Source: a virus
Lineage: Duplodnaviria > Caudoviricetes
DNA: 37,313 bases
Reading direction: 5' to 3' (one strand)
Virus record (IMG/VR): IMGVR_UViG_3300037479_000484
Coordinates: 1-37,313 of that record
In this document: positions 4,101 through 36,223 of the stretch, piece after piece
Layout of the letters: every line of letters starts with the position of its first letter
Position numbering within the stretch: position 1 is the first letter of the stretch
Notes under the pieces: generated by a model
The model's input: the letters and a program-made list of their open reading frames with translations, nothing else
What the model was told of the DNA's origin: nothing
The model's database searches: none
Translations under genes and position numbers: made by a program

Positions 4101-5521
4101 GGAATATTCTGTGCCAATTGAGTTTGAAGCTCTTCGGCTTGAACTTTTTGTTTGCTAGCTATTTGCCCAATAGCTGATAACGCAGAATCAAATTGTTGTG
4201 GATCTAATCCATAAAGAGTTGCCGCTTTTGATAAAGTTTCGATATCTTTGACCGCAGTTTTGGCTAAAGGGCTATCCTTAACTACGGCTAAATACTTGCT
4301 GTAATTTCGAGATAAAGTATCAAAACTTTGTCCGGTATCTTGAGCGACTTGCCTTAACTGAGTTAAAGTATCTTTTGCCCCCGTCTCTCCTTGAATAGCT
4401 GTTAAGGAATTTCTAAGATTTTCTAATTTAATGGTGGCTTGGGGAATCGAACGAATAAAGTTTCCAACTGCATTGGTAATTGCTTGAAAAGCTTGTTGAA
4501 TTAAAAAGATCGTTGCTCTAAAAGTGACAAAGCCAACGACGACTTGAGTTAAAGACAATCCAATTTTTTTAAGTGCCCCATCTACGGCTCTGGCACTAGA
4601 AACGATCAGGTTAAAGGCAGGCGGGATTAAGCCAAAAATATTCCCTTTAAATTTAGCAGCAAAAGTATCACTTTTTAATAAATTTGCTATAGCTTTGTCA
4701 AACTTTTCTAAGCCAGATAAATCTGGAGTATCTATCTTTAATCCTTTGCCTCGCAGATTATCAAAAATACTTTGAACTTTTGCCTTTAATCCGTCAATCG
4801 GCTTGGTATCGACTTTTAGATCGACTTTAACCGGAGAGACTTTACTAACCCGATTTTTAAGGGCATCGACATTTTCGAGAAGCGATCGCTTAAAAATGTT
4901 GGAGAAACCCGTTACTAATCCTTTGCCTAGTTTGCTAAAGCTAAAGCCAAATTCATCATTAATTCCGGCAAAAATCCCTTTAACAAATTCTCCAAAAGTT
5001 TGATTGAGAAGGATTTTTAAGCTTTCTGCATAGAGAATTAAGCCAGTCGTGGGCGGCAAAGCTAATCGAATGCGTTGAATCCCTGCATTAATTGTTCGCA
5101 CGGCTGCCGCCGCAAACCCGACCCCTAACGTTACCCCCAACGGAACCAAAGCAGCCGTTAAGCCAGCCTTGAGCAGTCCGATAATGGTTGGAATAGCAGC
5201 GATGACCGCAGTACTAGCCAAACCCGTCACCAATAAAGGCGTACTTCGTCCGATTAACTGAAAGGCAGATTGCAGCCCTAGAGGAAGTCGAGCAAATATG
5301 CCTGAAAAGGTTTGACTAACCGTGGCGAGTGCAGGGGCTAGAACGGTGGGAAGTTGAGCGACATATTTGGTAATGCCACCCATTATGCCCGGAATCTGTT
5401 GCCCAATTGATGTAATGGCTGGCAGTACCAGTTTGGGGATTTGAGCGGCAAATGCAGATACTGCCTTTAATGCACTTTGTAAATTCAGCCCTAGATCGGC
5501 AGCGATCGCGATTCCTTGCAT
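1115..5521 (-). CDS. Phage tail tape measure protein
   Basis: 1468 aa, Ala/Gly/Leu-rich helical N-half with a tape-measure core motif (IGQIASKQKVQAEELQTQLAQNIPG) and a long coiled-coil C-half; TAATG coupling to the upstream gene. Confidence 0.9.
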   Translation of the reverse strand: MQGIAIAADLGLNLQSALKAVSAFAAQIPKLVLPAITSIGQQIPGIMGGITKYVAQLPTVLAPALATVSQTFSGIFARLPLGLQSAFQLIGRSTPLLVTGLASTAVIAAIPTIIGLLKAGLTAALVPLGVTLGVGFAAAAVRTINAGIQRIRLALPPTTGLILYAESLKILLNQTFGEFVKGIFAGINDEFGFSFSKLGKGLVTGFSNIFKRSLLENVDALKNRVSKVSPVKVDLKVDTKPIDGLKAKVQSIFDNLRGKGLKIDTPDLSGLEKFDKAIANLLKSDTFAAKFKGNIFGLIPPAFNLIVSSARAVDGALKKIGLSLTQVVVGFVTFRATIFLIQQAFQAITNAVGNFIRSIPQATIKLENLRNSLTAIQGETGAKDTLTQLRQVAQDTGQSFDTLSRNYSKYLAVVKDSPLAKTAVKDIETLSKAATLYGLDPQQFDSALSAIGQIASKQKVQAEELQTQLAQNIPGTLDIIARQLNISSAELLGRVEKGTLDYITVLRAFFTGLETETSYGFTQIERGLGFALENLKNQSQILAASIGEAIKPYAIPVIDALSGSLKILEGNVKSIVGVISLFVGKNVIEFALRVILTQVQNLTRSILGVGAASSTTSAASVGAFARLTGAINTARLSVVSFLKSQVGLGAISFVLAGAAAAWFEIGGAVSAADNATKDARESIARAAEVTQRALNPEQLTRDLVSQSKARIQQWREEQGWIVQFFDKLDFGLNEAINGFDLLEAIRSRQVVSEGELIDDANAALSRAIQLQSDIANGADVSGRAIAGQVAELENLRNVLENTNFQEDYAVGLKEDLLKNIERLLPGLKRLRGAGAELSSTYAELNVQLEEFITNQEIAAAEAEAEIAKRVLKGEITQEEAEAQKAQDKVKRAQERLKEIEKVIAGYDAELKKREIEALKEGITNRSKDIKLPTFTDEERKAYNKLRKERAELEKQIAEDSLDIQEENGVKIVKRTRKNYSDALSELDRYNAMALTKQEEAETLRQIEIEKGLQKGTISQEQADKLRLESSQELLKRQIQIEKIRAAEIEKLTDKDIDPTEKDQLLGQSKQKLAELTLQLLQSEQEATQKVSEMQEKASANRLKQIDLQTEALSRQEEAIERINQLAQAGADLAKAYNAAASAQIDSQLARLDRIGELIDAVRPELSDVQQKAIAARQKRAAALELRAQGYNPQRETLAQFELRIARERIALEERSRQLKLEAQKQEQTLALANLQIERKKLEISQKRSQLETEKELAELRRSKIEEQKNLRSAASSEERAAIQESIRLIDQELAATTERLSLLNEEYLQEQAILDLKQQQLRIEQETANQQLQNEQNLARAKERQEYIGKGGRATDLVPRRDYNAQYGRPQTIGDLMQKYPASIPVPPMSDLSRAVEQSNRSVVAKLDSLIAAVNAQKPPQLTQSNQFINQFADANQKELLRKVRSQVAEDVTGIVKGAVNAIAPLKF

Positions 5522-7340: not shown

Positions 7341-7479
7341 CAATTCGCAATTCGCAATTCGCAATTAAGATAATACAATGAATTTTAGCGACAAGACATA
7401 AGTACTACACCGAAGCAGCCTGCGGCTGCCGGACGCGCAGCGTCCTCCGGTAATTTTGAATTTTGAATTTTGAATTTTG
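7341..7479. repeat. Heptamer tandem repeats flanking a GC-rich branched palindrome
   Basis: CAATTCG about 3.7 copies (7341-7366); AATTTTG x4 (7452-7479); hairpins GCAGCC-tgc-GGCTGC (7415-7429) and GGACGC-gca-GCGTCC (7431-7445). Confidence 0.85.
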
Positions 7480-7490
7480 AATGATTTTTT

Positions 7491-8219
7491 ATGCCTAACG
7501 TACAGTTTAAAGACGCAATTTCTGTCAATGATATCGCCGCACTCAAAGCAGTCGCCCCAGCCGATCGCGCCGACAAATCCCTACGTATTGTCGTCGCCCC
7601 TGGAAACAACCTGCCACCAACATGGTATCAGTTCGACGGCGATTCAACTTTCAGCGAAATGCTACCAGGAATTGTTGCTCCTACAACCGGGACAGGACGA
7701 TGGATTATGGTAGGAACGCCCATTTATTTTGCTAGTGACATTCCCAACGCCGTTCCTCCTTTAGCTGGGATGCGATGGGTTTTTGGTTTTAGAGTTTGGG
7801 AGTCCATCGGAACACAATTTTCTTCGCAATGGATAGAATTAAGTCCTTCTTCTGTCGATGGGTTAAACCATGCTGGAATAACGTTCACTTCTGAACAGGT
7901 GGATGATGGTCAAACCTTCAATATCACTACGTCTAGCGCTTCCATTCCGATTCGATTTATATCTACTGGTAGCTATCGTGCTGTTTATACCATTCCCGAC
8001 ACTGGAGTCCCTTCTGCAAGGCGTTATACCTTTATCAATACGGGATCTGAAGAGATCGTATTGCAATTAGGGGAAGGTTCGACAACTGGATATATACTTC
8101 AATCTAGCGCAAGTATGACTATCATCTGGGATAGCGACAACCAGCTTTGGGTAATTGAAAGTAAATTTCCCTCTCCACTAACAACTACTACCATTAGCGG
8201 CGGTGGAGGCGGATATTAA
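7491..8219 (+). CDS. Putative virion appendage (tail fiber/spike-like) protein
   Basis: 242 aa, beta-rich. The N-terminal DIAALKA...WYQFD...PTTGTGRW resembles tailspike attachment domains and aligns by eye with the C-terminus of the 14945-16483 protein. Confidence 0.55.
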   Translation: MPNVQFKDAISVNDIAALKAVAPADRADKSLRIVVAPGNNLPPTWYQFDGDSTFSEMLPGIVAPTTGTGRWIMVGTPIYFASDIPNAVPPLAGMRWVFGFRVWESIGTQFSSQWIELSPSSVDGLNHAGITFTSEQVDDGQTFNITTSSASIPIRFISTGSYRAVYTIPDTGVPSARRYTFINTGSEEIVLQLGEGSTTGYILQSSASMTIIWDSDNQLWVIESKFPSPLTTTTISGGGGGY

Positions 8220-18604: not shown

Positions 18605-18926
18605 TGCATAACTTTTCGTAAAGTTCGTTTAATAATTTATGAACTTTCTCGACAGAATTAACAATAAATATTTTGCCTTGCCAGTGATAATGAAATTCGC
18701 TCTCATCTGGCGTTAATCTTTGCTTGCTTGGTGGCTGACTGCTATCTTTCACTTCAACTAAAAAAGTGATACTACCCTTTTCTCCCACAATCGAGCATAA
18801 AAGATCGGGGCAACCTTTCCCAATATTATGCAACTGCAATACCGACGCACCGCGATCGCGCAATGCTTGAACAATTTCTTGTTGATTGCGATCGACCCGC
18901 GATCGCCTGATAATTCTTTTCTTCAA
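18597..18926 (-). CDS. VRR-NUC-like PD-(D/E)xK nuclease
   Basis: DRNQQEIVQALR...GCPDLL...LVEVKD...LTPDE...WQG; the TTG start overlaps the end of an AATTTTG repeat. Confidence 0.75.
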   Translation of the reverse strand: MKKRIIRRSRVDRNQQEIVQALRDRGASVLQLHNIGKGCPDLLCSIVGEKGSITFLVEVKDSSQPPSKQRLTPDESEFHYHWQGKIFIVNSVEKVHKLLNELYEKLCNE

Positions 18927-18952
18927 TTTTGAATTTTGAATTTTGAATTTTG
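18925..18952. repeat. AATTTTG x4 heptamer repeat
   Basis: Four exact copies at a gene junction. Confidence 0.85.
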
Positions 18953-18958
18953 AACTGT

Positions 18959-19573
18959 TTATCTCGGTCTATATTTCCAAAAAGGTATCGTTAGAAAACC
19001 CGGGAGATCGCCAATATAATTGACGCTATATTCACTGCTATAACTTTCGCTTGATATCCCCTTAAAAACGCCGCTTTTGACGACAAACATCAACAATTGT
19101 CCGGCTGCTGCTTTAAGGCGGTTGACTTCCGGCGTATCCTGCGTAAAATCCAGCCCTGCCGTATAAGTTACCTCGGCTTCGCTAGAAGCAACACTATTGA
19201 GTGAAGTCGTCCATCCCCTCATTGCATTTCTCAAAATTATCTGTCCGTCGCGATCGATTTGATACTGTTCGGGCGTTAAAGTCGTCCAATCTTGAGCGAG
19301 CATAACGCGCCGAAATCTATCTTGAACGTGGGCAAGCCTGACTTTAATAATTGGTTCGGGAGGATTGACGAGAGGAGAGTTAGATAACCAAACAGTTTGC
19401 GTCTTTAGATGCACTCGCGACTTTTCAGTATATTGCTGCATCTCTAGCGAGCGACCCGCACAGCGATCGCTCTCGATTAACGCCTGCAAATAAATTAATG
19501 CTCCCGTCAGTGCGTCGCCTGTCAGCGTCACTAGCGGGGCATACTTGGCGATATCCGCTTCTGTGAGAATCAT
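18959..19573 (-). CDS. Head-tail adaptor/connector protein
   Basis: Likely start is ATG 19573; EVTYTAG motif and SESYSSEYSVNY near the C-terminus; lies two genes after the capsid. Confidence 0.75.
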   Translation of the reverse strand: MILTEADIAKYAPLVTLTGDALTGALIYLQALIESDRCAGRSLEMQQYTEKSRVHLKTQTVWLSNSPLVNPPEPIIKVRLAHVQDRFRRVMLAQDWTTLTPEQYQIDRDGQIILRNAMRGWTTSLNSVASSEAEVTYTAGLDFTQDTPEVNRLKAAAGQLLMFVVKSGVFKGISSESYSSEYSVNYIGDLPGFLTIPFWKYRPR

Positions 19574-19817: not shown

Positions 19818-21629
19818 TTAAATTGCTAGATCGGTAGTGCGAACTTTAATGACTCGTAACTGCTGGGGAACAGCAGAGGTATCGTTGTAACCAACGGGGT
19901 CGATATCGAGTGCGCCAAATCCTTCTTGGGATAACCAAGTCATTCTTGTCTCGCGATCGAAGTTGGTTACTGAATCCTGTCTCAACTCCATCGGCATTCC
20001 TATGCCGCGTCCTTCCACGCCAGCACCGAAAGCGTAAGAGGTACGAGTCAGGGTAGAACCAACGCCGAGGGGGTCGTCTTGCACGCCCTCGGTTCCTGCC
20101 GCACCGACAGAAAAAGAATTAGACGAGAAGAAATGGAAGTTGTAATACTTGCCCAAATAGCCGCTAATTCTGCCCGAATCTTCTGGGGGAATCAAGGCAG
20201 GGTTGAGAACGTTGGTTAAGTCTCTCAATGCCGACTCATTAGGCGCTTCCCATTTATCCTCTAAATCCGCCTTCAGTTGCGCCTCACCAGTGCTATTGAG
20301 CGCCCAGATATAGCACCCATCTGCCAACGGCTCGATCTGTAGCAACTTCATGTAGGCGTGTAGATTAATTGCGAACAATCGCGTTACCGTTCCGTTATCG
20401 CCCGCGCCGAGATCGCCAGGGGTTGTTGTCACTCGCCCGCGATCGTTATAGACGACGCGCGAACTAACGTTGAAATAGCTGCGAATCTTTTTGTCTTCCC
20501 AGGTCGCATAATCGAACCCAAGCAAGCGATCTAACTGCGCGACGAGATCGTACATCGAATAGAAAGAAACAAAAGAAGGAATCGAAATCGGCGATAACGC
20601 CACGCTAGCACCTGGCTTGCCGCGTCCCCATTCCTCTACTGTTAGAGGAACCACACCAGTCTGTATGTTGTCAGACGAGGCAACAATCGGCGCAAACGTG
20701 CCGCCGCCAGAGAGCTTGTAATCGTCGGGATTGGGCGAACTGACGAGATAGCGAAATCGGGGTACTGAAATCGTATCTCCCATCCCCGCCGCGAAATCAA
20801 ATTGCGTGAGCGGAAATTGCCAGAATATATATCCAGGACGATGAGTAGTACGAACGATCGCGCTCAACGTCGGCAAGAAGCCGCCGGGGAGGTCGGCAAT
20901 TGTCGTCGATGCTTCCGTAACGGGAATGACGCTGCCGCCTGCGAACCAACCGCGCTTTTTCCCCCATTCAGTCAAGTCGTCTAGCAATTGGCGACGATTT
21001 TGGCGAACGAATTTATTTAATTGCCATTTATCGAAATCAATTGCTGACTGCCCCTGTTCGGTAATCTTTCGTACCTTGGGGGCACTGTCGTAAATCTGTA
21101 GTGCTTCGGCAAACGTGCCAAATACTTTATCGCGATCGCTGGCAATATGAGTATTGAAATTTACACCTTTCTCTTGTAAAGGATTTTTACTGCCAGTCAA
21201 TTTAAATAAATCCTCGAATTTATCGATCGTTTCCTTCGACTGTTTAAGTTGTTCCTGCGCCTCGTTCAATGTTTGTCGAACGGCTTCTAATTCCCGATCG
21301 CGTTCTTTTTCCTTTTCCGTCGCCTGCTCTTGGAATTGCTGCAAGAGCGATTGTTTTAGACTGTCGATTTCTTTTTGTTTTTGCTCGGCTTCTAACTGTC
21401 GTTGATCGGCTGCCTTACTATTAGCCGCCGCGATCGCATTTTGCACGATTTCGTTTAATTTACTCTCGTCAACAAAAGGAACGCTCCCTTGAGTTGAACT
21501 CGATTCTTTTGCCGCGATTTTCTGTTTAGTTATTTCGACCAGTGCCTCTTTTTCTTCTTGATTGCCTTCGCCGCTATCAGTTATCCTGACTTGCTTATAT
21601 TCCTTTTTCCCAAATCCTTTTCCGCTCAT
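19818..21629 (-). CDS. Major capsid protein with N-terminal coiled-coil scaffold domain
   Basis: 603 aa; Gln/Glu-rich coiled coil followed by capsid-like motifs (GDTISVPR, GYLGKYYNFHFFSS); downstream of the protease. Confidence 0.85.
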   Translation of the reverse strand: MSGKGFGKKEYKQVRITDSGEGNQEEKEALVEITKQKIAAKESSSTQGSVPFVDESKLNEIVQNAIAAANSKAADQRQLEAEQKQKEIDSLKQSLLQQFQEQATEKEKERDRELEAVRQTLNEAQEQLKQSKETIDKFEDLFKLTGSKNPLQEKGVNFNTHIASDRDKVFGTFAEALQIYDSAPKVRKITEQGQSAIDFDKWQLNKFVRQNRRQLLDDLTEWGKKRGWFAGGSVIPVTEASTTIADLPGGFLPTLSAIVRTTHRPGYIFWQFPLTQFDFAAGMGDTISVPRFRYLVSSPNPDDYKLSGGGTFAPIVASSDNIQTGVVPLTVEEWGRGKPGASVALSPISIPSFVSFYSMYDLVAQLDRLLGFDYATWEDKKIRSYFNVSSRVVYNDRGRVTTTPGDLGAGDNGTVTRLFAINLHAYMKLLQIEPLADGCYIWALNSTGEAQLKADLEDKWEAPNESALRDLTNVLNPALIPPEDSGRISGYLGKYYNFHFFSSNSFSVGAAGTEGVQDDPLGVGSTLTRTSYAFGAGVEGRGIGMPMELRQDSVTNFDRETRMTWLSQEGFGALDIDPVGYNDTSAVPQQLRVIKVRTTDLAI

Positions 21630-21704
21630 AATTAACTATTACAAAACACCTTGATTTATCTATGGTATATCGAATTATTTTCTGATGCAGGATAAAATAT
21701 CTAC

Positions 21705-21781
21705 ATCGACGCTTTTTTACTCATCGCTGCGCTTCTCGTCTCGACTCAACGCTATTAATTTACAAATATTAATAGTTTTTT
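21705..21781 (+). ncRNA. Candidate guide RNA 1: C(T/G)C-NN pentamer array with terminator
   Basis: ATC-GA CGC-TT TTT-TA CTC-AT CGC-TG CGC-TT CTC-GT CTC-GA CTC-AA CGC-TA (21705-21754); TAAAAT at 21693-21698; hairpin 21752-21775 then TTTTTT. Transcription is inferred. Confidence 0.65.
21752..21781 (+). terminator. Hairpin plus U-tract after the upstream array
   Basis: CTATTAAT (21752-21759) pairs with ATTAATAG (21768-21775), followed by six T; the stem is AT-rich. Confidence 0.5.
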
Positions 21782-21794
21782 GTTCGAGGATTTA

Positions 21795-21819
21795 TATACT
21801 TATAAATATGATTAGTGAA
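21795..21819 (+). promoter_or_regulatory. Promoter region of the RAMP-like gene and predicted gapped target of array 1
   Basis: TATACT -10-like box at 21795-21800; 21800-21816 reads TTaTAaATaTGaTTaGT, matching array dinucleotides TT,TA,AT,TG,TT,GT. Confidence 0.6.
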
Positions 21820-21827
21820 AGCAAAAT

Positions 21828-22421
21828 ATGACGAAAATCGCAATTGCAACCATCAGAGGAGAAGCCGCTTATTCTCAATCAAAATATCATTCGATTCCCA
21901 AGTTAAATAAAGAATTGCCACAGGATTACGAACGTCGAACTTGGAGAAAAAGAATACACCAAAACGAAGACGGAAACGTAATAATCCCTCCCATGTGTTG
22001 GAAAAATTGCTTGTCAGAAGCAGCCAAGTTTCTATCGATACAAATCCCAGGCAAGGGGAAGTCAACCTATACCAAACACTTTGAAAGTGGCGTTTTAGTT
22101 GTCGAGCCGTCTGTATTGCCAATTAAGGCTTCTGACGTGCGAGGCGATTGGGTATTCGTTCCCGCCGATGGCATTAGAGGGTCGGGCAAGCGCGTTGAAA
22201 AATGTTACCCAATTATCGATCCAGGTTGGCAATGTCAAGCTGAATTCTTTATTTTCGATGACGTAATTACCAAGGATGTGTTCTTAATGCACTTAAAACA
22301 AGCAGGACAGTTAATCGGGATCGGTAGATTTCGTCCTAGAAATAATGGCTACTACGGTCGGTTTAAGGTTCTAGACCTTGAGTGGAAAGATGCGGAGTAT
22401 GACGAATTAGTGTCGGCTTAG
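21828..22421 (+). CDS. Stand-alone RAMP/Cas7-like protein (Vipr-like)
   Basis: 197 aa with RAMP-like layout: N-terminal strand, IIPPMCWKNCL (cf. IP.s.lKg.l), central thumb-like region, C-terminal Gly-rich loop AGQLIGIGRFRPRNNGYYGRFKV. No other cas genes or CRISPR array in the window. Confidence 0.8.
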   Translation: MTKIAIATIRGEAAYSQSKYHSIPKLNKELPQDYERRTWRKRIHQNEDGNVIIPPMCWKNCLSEAAKFLSIQIPGKGKSTYTKHFESGVLVVEPSVLPIKASDVRGDWVFVPADGIRGSGKRVEKCYPIIDPGWQCQAEFFIFDDVITKDVFLMHLKQAGQLIGIGRFRPRNNGYYGRFKVLDLEWKDAEYDELVSA

Positions 22422-22491
22422 GTCGTCTCATCTCATCTCGTCTCGCCTCTGCTCTCCTCAACTCTACTCAACTCTACTCATCTCATCGCTA
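22422..22491 (+). ncRNA. Candidate guide RNA 2: CTC-NN pentamer array
   Basis: Twelve exact CTC at 5-nt spacing (22427-22484), bracketed by GTC and CGC; dinucleotides GT,AT,AT,GT,GC,TG,TC,AA,TA,AA,TA,AT,AT. Begins right after the RAMP stop codon. Confidence 0.75.
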
Positions 22492-23208
22492 TAGCAAAAC
22501 AATATTATTTAAATTCTCGCTAATAATCCCCGCTTGTACGCAATTACCGGAAAAGACAAAAGACAATTCCAAACTAACAACTTCACCAGCGCGGATATAA
22601 TATGGAGCTAAATCCTCTGGGTCGGCGAACCAAGTGAACGGAAACACAGGCGGGTAATGCGGGCAATCCTCATCGCTAAAACTCGACTCGCACAAAGGAC
22701 AAATATAGTCGCCCCTAAAATGTCCGCCAATCGATACATCGGCTTTTCGTCTATATTTAATTTCAGAAACAAGCGGATGGCTTGCTTCAATTGCGGCATA
22801 ACAAACAACTTGATATAAGCCGTCGCGATCGATAATCTCTTTATCGATATCAGGACTAGGCGATTCGACTAAAATCCGACTAATTGATTCGTTACTCGGT
22901 TTAGGAATATGCCACAATTCTGCATCGTAAACGAAGCCAAAATCTTTGAGCGAATCATCCCAAGAATGATCCATCATCAAATCTTTCCCCAAATAAGAAG
23001 CGACCATCGTTTCTAGGGCAGTTTTATCCCATACTGCTAGAGAACTATGCATTAAATTATTACTAGCAAGAAGCGGGACTGTATAAACTTCTTGTTGCAC
23101 GTATGGTTCCGTTCCTCTGGGACGATATTGATTGATTTGTGTCAATTCTTCTTCAGTAGGATAACGAAATTCGAGGCGTTTTTTTAATTGAAAAATGGTG
23201 GCTCGCAT
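22489..23208 (-). CDS. Prohead protease
   Basis: 239 aa; MDHSWD, DVSIGG, CPLC...CPH insert and LELSFV motifs; upstream of the capsid. Confidence 0.8.
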   Translation of the reverse strand: MRATIFQLKKRLEFRYPTEEELTQINQYRPRGTEPYVQQEVYTVPLLASNNLMHSSLAVWDKTALETMVASYLGKDLMMDHSWDDSLKDFGFVYDAELWHIPKPSNESISRILVESPSPDIDKEIIDRDGLYQVVCYAAIEASHPLVSEIKYRRKADVSIGGHFRGDYICPLCESSFSDEDCPHYPPVFPFTWFADPEDLAPYYIRAGEVVSLELSFVFSGNCVQAGIISENLNNIVLL

Positions 23209-23266: not shown

Positions 23267-23704
23267 TCAATCGGGCAAATAATCACGAGTAAGCGTTTCT
23301 TGAACAGAAAAAGGACACTGTTGAGGGAAAGTCTGTTCGCTTAATCCGGTTTCGGCAACAGCTTTTAAAATAGCTCCTTCATAGCAATCAATTAAAATCT
23401 CACCGATTTTATTCTTTAGAGAAGGACTATCTAAAAGAAGCCATTCAATTTGTTTTCGTTGCTCAATGATAGTAGCTTTCCAGCTATTAGAACGCATTTG
23501 GGGCTGATACTTCCACTTGAGTAAATGCATTAACAAAACAGTCAACCGATTGCGTAGCTCTCGTTTTTCACTCCTGCCCATGCTTTCTATTTCTTCAATT
23601 AGATTATCGATATCTAGCTCGCTAAATTTCTTCTCTCGCAATAATTTAGCGGTAGTTTCTATCCATAGATAAAAGTCTTTTTCGTAAAGAGAATTAACCA
23701 TCAT
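23267..23704 (-). CDS. DUF29-family protein
   Basis: LYEKDFYLW...LIEEIESMGRSEKRELRNRLTVLLMHLLKWKYQ...FPQQCPF, typical of this cyanobacterial family. Confidence 0.92.
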   Translation of the reverse strand: MMVNSLYEKDFYLWIETTAKLLREKKFSELDIDNLIEEIESMGRSEKRELRNRLTVLLMHLLKWKYQPQMRSNSWKATIIEQRKQIEWLLLDSPSLKNKIGEILIDCYEGAILKAVAETGLSEQTFPQQCPFSVQETLTRDYLPD

Positions 23705-32911: not shown

Positions 32912-33526
32912 ATGGGATCTTTTCCGATTCAAGAAATATTCAATAGCGTACAAGGTGAAGGAGAGCAAGCGGGAAAGTGGAGCGGTTTTATTCGATTGTA
33001 CGGCTGTCCTCTTGCTTGTCCGTTTTGCGATACGGGATATGGAGACATTAAACCGAAAAACCCTCCTTCTTACAAACGATTAACATTTGCAGAAATTCTC
33101 GAACAATTGCAATCATCCCATGTAGTCATTACAGGAGGCGAGCCATTCATCCATCGCGATAAGTTGCAAGAATTAATCTCCGAATTGTACAAAAACAATA
33201 AACAAATACAGATAGAAACATCCGGCGCATTTTGGGTAGATTTACCCAACGATGTTTGGATAACGCTATCACCAAAAGAGCATTGCACCAAATATCCGGT
33301 TGTGTCACAAGTGTGGCAACGAGCGTCAGAAATTAAGTTAGTAATCTCAAGCGGACTAGAGTTAGATTTTTATCGAGGTCAATTAAAACAAGCCACCGTG
33401 CCAATCCATTTACAACCTGAATGGTATGGAATGCCAAAAACGTTAGAGATAACTTTAGACTGTCTCAAACAATTACCGACTGCTAAATTATCAATCCAAA
33501 TGCACAAATATTTAGAATTGCCTTAA
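32912..33526 (+). CDS. queE: 7-carboxy-7-deazaguanine synthase (radical SAM)
   Basis: EIFNSVQGEG, CPLACPFCDT, VVITGGEP, IET, TLSPK, QMHKY. Confidence 0.93.
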   Translation: MGSFPIQEIFNSVQGEGEQAGKWSGFIRLYGCPLACPFCDTGYGDIKPKNPPSYKRLTFAEILEQLQSSHVVITGGEPFIHRDKLQELISELYKNNKQIQIETSGAFWVDLPNDVWITLSPKEHCTKYPVVSQVWQRASEIKLVISSGLELDFYRGQLKQATVPIHLQPEWYGMPKTLEITLDCLKQLPTAKLSIQMHKYLELP

Positions 33527-33546
33527 CGAATTACGAATTACGAATT
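33526..33546. repeat. ACGAATT x3 heptamer repeat
   Basis: Three exact copies filling the queE-queD gap. Confidence 0.8.
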
Positions 33547-33550
33547 ATTA

Positions 33551-33979
33551 ATGTGGGTACTATCAAAAGAATTCACCTTTGAGGCATCGCATCAATTGCC
33601 CCATCACGACGGAAAATGCGCTCGATTACACGGTCATTCTTGGAAAGGCGTGGTTTATGTAGCGGGAGATAAATTGATTGAAAATGGCGTAAAACAGGGA
33701 ATGTTAATCGATTACGCTACTATCAAAGAATACCTCAATCCTTTGATAGAAAATTATTTAGATCATTGGCATTTAAATGACACAACCAGACTGGAGAACC
33801 CCACTAGCGAACGATTGGCAGCATGGATCTACTACGAACTACTTTCAGCCGGATTGCCAGGACTTATTGCCGTCGAAATCAAAGAAACCTGCACCTCTCG
33901 ATGTCTCTACTATCCAAGAAGCCACTCGACTGCTGAGGCAATCGATGTCGCTGATTTGGGGGGATTTATTCTTAAGTGA
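33551..33979 (+). CDS. queD: 6-carboxytetrahydropterin synthase
   Basis: FEASHQL, CARLHGHS, LDH, NPTSE, ET motifs. Confidence 0.95.
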   Translation: MWVLSKEFTFEASHQLPHHDGKCARLHGHSWKGVVYVAGDKLIENGVKQGMLIDYATIKEYLNPLIENYLDHWHLNDTTRLENPTSERLAAWIYYELLSAGLPGLIAVEIKETCTSRCLYYPRSHSTAEAIDVADLGGFILK

Positions 33980-34460
33980 GGGAATGCAAGAAACCCCGGA
34001 GCGAATTGTTAGATTCTGGCTAGAAGCGACAGAGGGATTAAACGACGATCCCAGTCTCCCTTTACAAAAGCAGTTTAGTTGTCCTCACGACGAAATTGTA
34101 TTAATTAAAGACATTTCTTTTCAAAGTTTGTGCGAACATCATTTCTTACCTTTTGTAGGGAAAGCACATATTGCTTATATCCCAAACGGTAAGGTAGTGG
34201 GACTGTCAAAAATGCCGAGATGTTTAGATATATTAGCCGCTCGTCCGCAGATACAAGAACGATTGACAGTTGAATTAGGGCAAATAATAGAGAGAGAATT
34301 ATCGCCTTTAGGGACGATGATTGTGTTAGAAGCCGAACATATTTGCATGAATTGCCGAGGGGTACTCAAACACGACTCGGTAACGAAAACGAGTTATATA
34401 TCGGGTTTATTTAAAGAGAACGCTAGTGCCAAGTTAGAAGTTTTGGAGATGTTGAGATAA
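33867..34460 (+). CDS. folE: GTP cyclohydrolase I
   Basis: ETPER, SLCEHHFLPF, VGLSK, QIQERLT, HICMNCRG; start uncertain (TTG 33867 after AGGA, or ATG 33777). Confidence 0.93.
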   Translation: MPSKSKKPAPLDVSTIQEATRLLRQSMSLIWGDLFLSEGMQETPERIVRFWLEATEGLNDDPSLPLQKQFSCPHDEIVLIKDISFQSLCEHHFLPFVGKAHIAYIPNGKVVGLSKMPRCLDILAARPQIQERLTVELGQIIERELSPLGTMIVLEAEHICMNCRGVLKHDSVTKTSYISGLFKENASAKLEVLEMLR

Positions 34461-34538
34461 TTCGTAATTCGTAATTCTAGGAGGGCGACTTTCCAGACGG
34501 AGGGAACCTCCGCCTGGATTCGCCCTCAATTCGTAATT
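34459..34538. repeat. AATTCGT repeats enclosing a long GC-rich hairpin
   Basis: Repeats at 34459-34477 and 34528-34538; stems GAGGGCGA/TCGCCCTC, TCCAG/CTGGA and CGGAGG/CCTCCG across 34481-34527. Confidence 0.8.
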
Positions 34539-34547
34539 GAGAAACAG

Positions 34548-35276
34548 ATGAGAAAAGCTTATAGAAACGGATTAGTAATTTTAAGTGGCGGACAAGATTC
34601 GACCACTTGCGCGGTTCAAGCCCAACTTGAATGCGAACGAGTATGCGGAGTAACGTTTAACTACGGACAACGCCACCAGTTAGAGCTAGAGGCGGCAATT
34701 GCGATCGCGTCGGAGTTAAAGCTAGACCAATACGAGGTCATTAACCTGCCAAAAGGTATATTGCAAAGCGTATCCCCATTAGTCAGTCAGAATACAGTAG
34801 AAACTTACGGGAGCGCCGAACAGTTACCTTCAGGGATAGCTAATACCTTTATTCCTTGTCGCAATCTACTATTTCTAACTATCGCTGCCAATCGCGCCGC
34901 ACAATGGGACTGCGAAATTATTTATACCGGAGTCAATCAAACCGATTATTCAGGTTATCCCGATTGTAGAAAACCGTTTATCGATCGCGCTATGGCGGCA
35001 ATCAATCAAGCAATAAGGGGCGAGGATTTTGGGTTAGATATCGCCGCACCTTTATTGTTTTACTCAAAAGCGCAAACCGTTCGTTTAGCCTACGATATTT
35101 TAGGGGCTGAACGATTCGATGAGGTTTTCTCTCAAACCCATACTTGTTACAATAACGTGCGCGGCGGCTGCGGAAAATGTGCCGCTTGTTTGTTGAGAGA
35201 TAAAGGATTCAAGGAAGCAGGAATAGACGATCCGATTTGGCAATATCGTATTGATTCGCCTTCTTTAGTATCGTGA
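34548..35276 (+). CDS. queC: 7-cyano-7-deazaguanine (preQ0) synthase
   Basis: SGGQDS, YGQRH, PCRN, YPDCR, TCY...CGKCAAC. Confidence 0.95.
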   Translation: MRKAYRNGLVILSGGQDSTTCAVQAQLECERVCGVTFNYGQRHQLELEAAIAIASELKLDQYEVINLPKGILQSVSPLVSQNTVETYGSAEQLPSGIANTFIPCRNLLFLTIAANRAAQWDCEIIYTGVNQTDYSGYPDCRKPFIDRAMAAINQAIRGEDFGLDIAAPLLFYSKAQTVRLAYDILGAERFDEVFSQTHTCYNNVRGGCGKCAACLLRDKGFKEAGIDDPIWQYRIDSPSLVS

Positions 35277-36223
35277 AAATTTATTTAACTGATACAAGCG
35301 GCGATCGAGGGCAGTCCTACCTGTTATTCGAGCAAGTGACATTCAACCATTTAATTAGTTTTGCCTACTATCAAAAACAAGAAAAAAGCTTCGCGAAAAT
35401 CTGGCATAAAATCGATGAAATGAGGTTGTATTTTACTCATTCAGGTAGCGATAAATTACCGAACGGAGACAGTATTAGAACGTTGCTACCTCCTAATAAC
35501 TTAATGAGTTACGCTCACAATTCGTCAAGTAACGAGGGGTTATGGGCGCAATTATGGAGTCAAAAAATCCCTAATGTTATTGTCGATTCTGGCGCATTTA
35601 CTGCTTATACAACTGGGAAAATCATCAATCCTAAAGATTATGCTCGTTGGGCATTAGATTTTAAGAAGCGATGGGAACATAAAATGGCATCTTTGCACTT
35701 TATGAACTTAGATGTCATCGGCGATCAAGATGCGTCTTGGAAGAATCAGAAAGTCTTAGAAGCGATGGGGTTAAATCCGATTCCTATCGTTACGTTTGGT
35801 GCGGACAAAAGTCATTTAATTCGAGCGATAGAAAATTACGATTACGCAGCGTTGGGCGGATTAGTTCCTTATGTTTTTCAACCTAAAAAACTCGATACTT
35901 GGTTGGGATACTGCTTTAGTATTATCGTTTCTCATTATCAAAAAACGGGGATAATGCCAAAGATTCATCTACTCGGCATTACAACCGAACAATATTTATT
36001 AAAATACCCTTGTTACAGTTCGGACTCGTCTAGCTGGGTGCAGTGTTTGAGGTTTGGCAGGGCGAATAATGCGGGGATAAAAAAGATACCGAGTTATACA
36101 GTTTCGGATAGTGCTAAAGCGGCGACAGTTCACGCACTAAAAAAGAACATTCAAGCACTGCAAACGATAGAAGAAAAAGCAACTAAGCTTTGGAAGAATA
36201 GGGGGATAGTTTGGGATGAGTAG
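35273..36223 (+). CDS. TGT-fold (DpdA-like) guanine transglycosylase candidate
   Basis: VDSGAF, NLDVIG, ALGGLV, IHLLG and SSDSSSW motifs; coupled to queC. Confidence 0.75.
   Translation: MKIYLTDTSGDRGQSYLLFEQVTFNHLISFAYYQKQEKSFAKIWHKIDEMRLYFTHSGSDKLPNGDSIRTLLPPNNLMSYAHNSSSNEGLWAQLWSQKIPNVIVDSGAFTAYTTGKIINPKDYARWALDFKKRWEHKMASLHFMNLDVIGDQDASWKNQKVLEAMGLNPIPIVTFGADKSHLIRAIENYDYAALGGLVPYVFQPKKLDTWLGYCFSIIVSHYQKTGIMPKIHLLGITTEQYLLKYPCYSSDSSSWVQCLRFGRANNAGIKKIPSYTVSDSAKAATVHALKKNIQALQTIEEKATKLWKNRGIVWDE

Follow-up and report, generated by a model that had tools for sequence, protein, structure and literature searches.

The locus analysed here raises the question of whether a phage-encoded, RNA-guided system can carry a guide that is directed at the promoter region of its own effector gene. 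It lies in a virus record of 37,313 nt (IMGVR_UViG_3300037479_000484), which was analysed over its full length and is referred to below as the window. An original prediction had proposed that a short array upstream of a RAMP gene spells out the promoter of this gene in a code in which two bases are read and one is skipped, and that the array is a partial-match guide for self-repression. VIPR systems were described in 2026 as weapons against other mobile elements and were proposed to predate CRISPR (bioRxiv 10.64898/2026.04.26.720920, 10.64898/2026.04.26.720927; a discovery and a structure preprint, cited as far as their accessible text goes). A rule of one skipped nucleotide was demonstrated in vitro and with reporters in the discovery preprint, and the predicted code was borne out, being the same as this published rule.

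Genomic context and layout of the cassette

The window carries genes for terminase, tape measure protein, ThyX and the queuosine pathway. A queuosine/7-deazaguanine cluster at 32912-36223, comprising a radical SAM gene, QueD, GTP cyclohydrolase I, QueC and a TGT-like gene, presumably serves in DNA base modification. The 7-nt tandem repeat AATTTTG, of about four copies, occurs at 7452-7495 and at 18911-18968, 11.4 kb apart, and a DUF29 gene is located at 23267-23704 among head genes and near the VIPR cassette.

The product of 19818-21629 (minus strand, divergent from vipr), considered here as context only, shared 41.5% identity with the protein annotated as major capsid protein in Cylindrospermopsis phage Cr-LKS4. 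The HIP1 octamer, a motif linked to cyanobacteria, occurs 31 times in the 20 kb surrounding the locus. Because of the capsid similarity and the abundance of HIP1, the host of the phage is likely a cyanobacterium.

The VIPR cassette is located on the plus strand between the capsid gene and a convergent gene of 239 aa. Its order is array 1, a hairpin with U-run, a short A+T-rich stretch, the 197-aa vipr gene and array 2. Array 1 (21705-21754, plus strand) consists of ten 5-nt units, each with a scaffold triplet, mostly CTC or CGC, and a variable dinucleotide (NN), and is predicted to give a self-directed vrRNA. TAAAAT at 21693-21698 (plus strand) is a candidate -10 box for this RNA on consensus resemblance only, with a start that would lie near 21705, and was not called by a sigma-70 scan. 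The hairpin, with 9 bp rich in A and U (21751-21759 with 21768-21776), and the U-run together occupy 21751-21781 (plus strand). The vipr gene (21828-22421, plus strand) encodes a protein with a RAMP/Cas7-like fold and a glycine-rich C-terminal loop, and its stop codon is immediately followed by array 2 (22422-22491, plus strand), which has fourteen CTC/NN units. TATACT at 21795-21800 (plus strand), at -33 from the ATG, would by its sequence be the likely -10 box of vipr, and TATGAT at 21807-21812 (plus strand) is an alternative candidate. The sigma-70 scan of the window called no vipr promoter; for the capsid gene it called a separate candidate promoter at 21703-21674 on the minus strand. The stretch 21500-22700 was identical in two DNA runs that are possibly the source of the record (variant look-up).

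Assignment to VIPR

The predicted structure of the RAMP gene product (pLDDT 83) matched Cas7/Csm3-type RAMP subunits, in agreement with the original prediction; the best PDB matches were subunits of this type (E 2e-9, TM about 0.58). When an alignment of 22 close homologs was compared with the Vipr protein of the Escherichia phage SUSP1, HHalign gave 96.3% and E 1.5e-9; a family profile gave E 1.4e-9 against the same protein, and phrog_4652 was hit by both the window protein and SUSP1 Vipr. A search of the ESM Atlas with Vipr returned matches to unnamed viral clusters only, and plasmids gave no match to the window system. Cyanobacterial genomes were positive in 1 of 401 and 1 of 52 cases with a single-protein query, and in 2 of 401 and 2 of 90 with the profile. 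The protein of locus L078, used as single query, found nothing in viral contigs.

The locus is minimal in that none of the ten repeat families detected in the window was CRISPR-like (0/10); no cas family was hit among the scanned window ORFs (overlapping sets of 25, 15 and 21, out of 95 ORFs). With its CTC/CGC scaffold, the window departs from strict GGY/NN pentamers. The published wording "GGY/NN or a related consensus" covers its two arrays of 10 and 14 units, and the arrays of relatives contain a mixture of GGC, GAC, CGC, CAC, GTC and CTC scaffolds. Self-matches were confined to a skip of 1 nt. Searches of the window with the proteins of two relatives as queries found no vap1 homolog. Such a homolog was present in eight loci of the first homolog set (see below) besides L001, in which the gene after vipr hits phrog_5926, the same family as SUSP1 vap1. 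A vap accessory gene is typical of VIPR, without being universal (bioRxiv 10.64898/2026.04.26.720920, 10.64898/2026.04.26.720927). Judged by protein homology, array architecture and code, the window system is a VIPR system.

Its closest known counterpart is the VIPR of SUSP1 (type II, with vap1), with which it shares a homologous RAMP protein, arrays of 5-nt period flanking the gene, the 1-nt skip code and the phage setting. It differs from the latter by a CTC/CGC instead of a GGY scaffold, by the negative search for a vap1 homolog, and by a guide that matches its own promoter region, whereas SUSP1 vrRNA1 has no self-match (run of 3). Non-canonical VIPR arrays (GAC/NN, CAC/NN and others) also combine a non-GGY scaffold with a Vipr-like fold; the accessible part of the preprint describing them (bioRxiv 10.64898/2026.10.21.760802) does not name CTC/CGC among these scaffolds.

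Self-match of array 1 in the window

By coordinate, the units of array 1 are atcGA (21705-21709), cgcTT, tttTA, ctcAT, cgcTG, cgcTT, ctcGT (21735-21739), ctcGA, ctcAA and cgcTA (21750-21754), and the NN order is GA TT TA AT TG TT GT GA AA TA. The array itself had been recognized correctly, but its start had been placed at 21713, which misses the first unit with its dinucleotide GA at 21708-21709. Re-reading from the coordinates reproduced the proposed match: the six units TT TA AT TG TT GT (21710-21739, plus strand) agree in 12 of 12 read positions with 21800-21816 (plus strand), each third base being skipped, and each of the flanking units matches in one of two positions. A guide of this kind would pair with the template (minus) strand. 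As had been noted, the block ends 11 nt upstream of the vipr ATG (21828) and abuts TATACT, its first base being the last base of this hexamer; the alternative box TATGAT is located inside it. The six units are followed by three more and then by the 3' hairpin, and one of them carries an atypical TTT scaffold. The match between array 1 and the vipr promoter region is confirmed as real.

This site is the sole run of six at skip 1 on both strands of the window; the best runs of array 1 at other skips were 5 (skip 0) and 4 (skip 2). The shuffle control that had been suggested gave a divided result. A run of at least six within the 75 nt before vipr appeared in 11 of 20000 shuffles of the guide order and in 4 of 20000 shuffles of the region, and the local match is rare by this measure; a run of six anywhere in the 37-kb window appeared in 56 of 1000 guide shuffles, and is not rare. 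Over the whole guide, identity at the site is 15/20 (75%), tied with window sites at 5012 (plus strand), 34391 (plus strand) and 4098 (minus strand). Taken from the window alone, the match is only suggestive and may be due to chance.

Self-matches in homologous loci

The homolog collection comprised 280 loci, the window and duplicates included, and leaves out the DNA around relatives of 70-80% identity (P0002-P0016). Those loci that had a start codon and 150 nt of upstream sequence (270 of 280) were grouped into 136 clusters at 85% protein identity. The earliest scans covered arrays within 400-500 nt only and missed distal self-guides; the first array detector had been trained on GGC-rich loci and missed the arrays of L001, and a generic detector did not pick up the AGC arrays of L446. 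Among 155 upstream arrays near the gene (window included), seven matches of at least five units to the promoter zone were found at skip 1; skips 0 and 2 gave no such match.

The window was placed by a protein tree in a clade of 26 tips (support 0.96), which gave a first set of eight other locus groups; a second tree did not recover this clade as a whole. All arrays within 3 kb were compared with the 60 nt before the ATG of their own vipr gene. With the window left out, a self run of at least five units was found in six of the eight groups, as compared to an expectation of 0.10 loci (5000 guide shuffles each). The runs were 5 in the L001 group, 6 in L078, 5 in the L082 group, 7 (and 5) in L192, 5 in L195 and 6 in L201; L148, on a contig of 1081 nt, reached 4, and L177 reached 3. 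When guides were compared with the promoters of other groups, one of 72 pairs reached 5 (L195 guide, L201 promoter). Self runs in this set never exceeded 4 at skips 0 and 2, the best ones in the promoter window at skip 0 being 3-4. Other skip lengths were rejected as the code, as skips 0 and 2 gave no signal.

Four later groups, from cyanobacterial genomes or HIP1-rich contigs, were tested after the self-match prediction had been noted. L398/L400 showed a self run of 6 at -40, and L446 a run of 5 at -16, the latter with a detector that was adapted after the AGC scaffold had been seen and that had no background of its own. L353 had a self run of only 4, and L447/L448, of a distant GGY type, had no run of 4. 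In total, 8 of 12 other groups, mostly cyanobacterial, contained one guide with a match of 5-7 units in a row to the 60 nt that precede its own vipr gene, and matches occurred in 5 of 967 other 60-nt windows used as position control (11 of these loci, window included). Formal p-values of the homolog and covariation tests are overstated because the groups are related, and L192, L195 and L201 share one ancestral guide. The seven distinct guide/target sequence types, with the window counted, are therefore the safer count than the group totals. The remaining 125 clusters with arrays gave a weak signal (6 at skip 1, and 1 each at skips 0 and 2), and none of ten further non-HIP1 loci reached a run of 5.

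Several further arrays were recorded in these loci. An array of L192 that starts 2112 nt downstream of the vipr ATG makes a second self-match of 7 units on the minus strand, from 5 nt before the ATG, the first being that of 5 units at -36; two CTC arrays, divergent from vipr, are located 82-240 nt upstream of the gene on the minus strand of the same locus. The array L353:5365-5399 and two other arrays of this locus have a common 3' block with the 4-unit match at -42; by eye, two more units match in one of them if one guide unit is bulged out. L446:5642-5681 and the arrays after vipr in this locus (G523, a cyanobacterial genome) have an AGC/NN scaffold, a non-GGY variant. An array of L019, about 174-119 nt upstream of vipr, matches the codons for QIPGKGK on the minus strand, with a run of 7 in its own gene. 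This guide has a run of at least 6 on vipr in 113 of the 136 cluster representatives and is possibly a broad anti-vipr guide or a self-limiting one. Upstream arrays of L003 and L005 make 6-unit matches to their own neighbouring, apparently coding sequence at -275 and -133.

Covariation and placement of the target

The covariation between array dinucleotides and promoter that had been called for in homologous loci was found. L192, L195 and L201 have an orthologous five-unit block. Of its ten read columns, two are variable, each with matching changes in guide and target; of its five skipped columns, every one is variable (5/5). L001 and L074 differ in none of ten read bases and in two of five skipped bases, and L001, L002 and L074 differ in their unmatched 3' units and scaffold triplets.

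The target is located between -16 and -43 in coding-strand sense, for guides just upstream as well as for those 1.3-3.3 kb downstream. In most loci it overlaps a TAnnnT box, and most relatives have these boxes at -29 to -40; no overlap is seen in L398, which lacks a TAnnnT box, or in L201, whose boxes are located immediately 5' of the block. The matched block ends 2-3 units before the 3' end of the guide in every match. According to the structure preprint (bioRxiv 10.64898/2026.04.26.720920 / 10.64898/2026.04.26.720927), DNA engagement by SUSP1 VIPR begins at the 3'-proximal subunits 8-12, and the position of the block near the guide 3' end fits this first engagement.

Guide strand and array 2

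The original prediction had also taken the match as an indication that the plus strand is the guide. This argument fails on logic: the match carries no strand information, because reverse-complementing guide and target together preserves a gapped match in the same orientation. Other features bear on the strand. Canonical GGC units stand in frame with CTC units in the arrays of relatives, these arrays end in AA-type units as does the window array, and array 1 is followed on the plus strand by a hairpin and U-run (z -4.2; 1 of 200 shuffles as good). For these reasons, the guide is likely the plus strand of the array.

The array-1 hairpin was not called by a scan for G+C-rich terminators, and Rfam gave no match for the vrRNA 3' structure; array 2 has no such structure (z +0.5). 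Stronger hairpins were found at the equivalent place in L001 and L074. The hairpin is likely a terminator or 3' cap that keeps guide and vipr promoter apart.

Viral contigs were scanned with two exact patterns for an external target of array 2. The scans yielded 5 and 58 hits (63 in all), of which the best extended to 22/28; these were ascribed to chance and rejected as targets. No target with at most three mismatches was found in 401 genomes of the order of G001 (0/401). Array 2 was also rejected as a guide for the vipr promoter, since its run of 4, on the minus strand, is at background level. It is predicted to be an outward-directed guide.

Discussion

The reading that array 1 is a partial-match, self-directed guide is supported by the window match, its repetition in homologs and the covariation, and has good comparative support at the sequence level. 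Four other explanations have to be weighed against it. The guide might be aimed at the vipr promoter of closely related sister phages or prophages, in anti-VIPR warfare or superinfection control, with a self-match that reflects common descent and has been tolerated, not selected. Guides of this general kind exist: vrRNAs against the vipr of other phages have been published (competition preprint, bioRxiv 10.64898/2026.10.15.759431; discovery preprint), the guide of L019 fits conserved codons of vipr in its own locus and in most relatives, and the L195 guide also reaches 5 on the L201 promoter. As far as the accessible text of the competition preprint goes, such anti-vipr or solo vrRNAs resemble window-type guides in being directed against a vipr locus; however, they target the vipr coding sequence or vrRNAs of rivals, avoid self and match self less than rivals, whereas window-type guides match their own promoter region best and those of others almost never. 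Moreover, the self-matches are limited to 5-7 units, as opposed to the near-full matches of reported attack guides. We therefore consider this explanation unlikely. It is also conceivable that the complex binds the site and that the selected effect is something other than lower initiation at vipr, for example a timer, or a block of opposite-strand transcription through the cassette toward the capsid gene. The window cassette is antisense between two minus-strand genes, one of them the major capsid gene, and VIPR silences from either strand according to the discovery preprint (bioRxiv 10.64898/2026.04.26.720920 / 10.64898/2026.04.26.720927). The site, however, keeps its place relative to the vipr start despite quite different neighbours among the loci, and the capsid gene has its own candidate promoter, which makes an effect of this type quite improbable.

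The match might further be a by-product of guide writing, in which a nearby stretch was copied into the guide and persisted without function. The accessible text of the VIPR preprints gives no account of guide acquisition, and the upstream guides of two non-cyanobacterial loci (L003, L005) do match neighbouring coding sequence. A by-product would nevertheless hardly keep its target at -16 to -43 when the guide is kilobases away, nor show conservation or covariation at the read positions alongside drift of the skipped ones and of the scaffold triplets, and this account is very unlikely. Chance similarity of two A+T-rich sequences could be argued from the window-wide shuffles and from the 15/20 identity shared with three other sites; the match recurs, at skip 1 only, in 8 of 12 other groups as opposed to 5 of 967 control windows, which renders chance extremely improbable.

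The self-directed guide is thus retained as the preferred reading, and array 1 is probably a self-repressing guide RNA that would keep the amount of Vipr at a set level. It is established that the gene encodes a Vipr homolog and has an array of 5-nt period on either side, and that the match exists. Array 1 would be transcribed on the plus strand as an RNA of about 75 nt that ends in its own hairpin, separate from vipr. By analogy with the SUSP1 structures, Vipr subunits would coat this RNA in such a way that the CTC/CGC triplets are held and the NN pairs presented. Five to six units near the 3' end would then pair with the template strand over the -10 box and start site, and the paired complex would compete with RNA polymerase. 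The short match would make binding weaker and reversible, so that transcription of vipr would fall as Vipr accumulates and would be freed from this brake if Vipr were lost or titrated away. The outward-directed guide would be array 2. Repression by VIPR of a reporter with the target upstream of the gene has been reported in the discovery preprint (bioRxiv 10.64898/2026.04.26.720920 / 10.64898/2026.04.26.720927); the accessible text of the VIPR preprints does not state whether 5-6 units suffice for repression.

A comparable logic is known from CreR RNAs of type I and V-A CRISPR-Cas systems and from the long-form tracrRNA of type II-A (bioRxiv 10.1101/2024.10.29.618823, as far as accessible), where a short, guide-like RNA encoded upstream, with its own terminator and partial complementarity to the effector promoter, exerts negative feedback. 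These CreR RNAs use CRISPR repeats, contiguous pairing, a PAM and Cas effectors, whereas the window system has Vipr as effector and gapped pairing. A partial match to the promoter of its own effector is present in array 1, in the gapped code; a CRISPR repeat and a contiguous match are absent. Array 1 would work like a CreR RNA without being one.

In the discovery preprint, no self-targeting hit was found with an NN match of at least 80% in the P. fulva clade, types III and V (bioRxiv 10.64898/2026.04.26.720920 / 10.64898/2026.04.26.720927; accessible part). Since the self-site of the window has a 75% NN match and those of most relatives have less, this cut-off misses such self-guides by design. 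The string "autoregulat" is absent from the main texts of the discovery, competition (10.64898/2026.10.15.759431) and language-model (10.64898/2026.10.21.760802) preprints, and no paper on VIPR self-repression was found in a literature search that covered sources other than subscription journals. The skip code is already published; a self-limiting role is not reported in the accessible text of the VIPR preprints.

A further, more doubtful possibility is that the feedback loop of cyanobacterial VIPR acts as a sensor of counter-defence, in which decoy guides or inhibitors that tie up Vipr would raise Vipr output, that the block of 5-6 units beside the 3' end is a sufficient seed, and that the long guides of L192, L195, L398 and L353 may join a 3' self block with unrelated 5' units. 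If the sensor reading is true, RNA-guided self-repression would be common to VIPR and CRISPR (CreR), whether because it is an ancient RAMP trait or because the two systems converged on it. The self-directed guide, if true, would itself parallel the CreR feedback of CRISPR; it would point to a minimal pairing for silencing, namely 5-6 units close to the guide 3' end, a point of relevance to the off-target rules of VIPR tools. A conserved and co-varying self-guide would add a regulatory role to VIPR.
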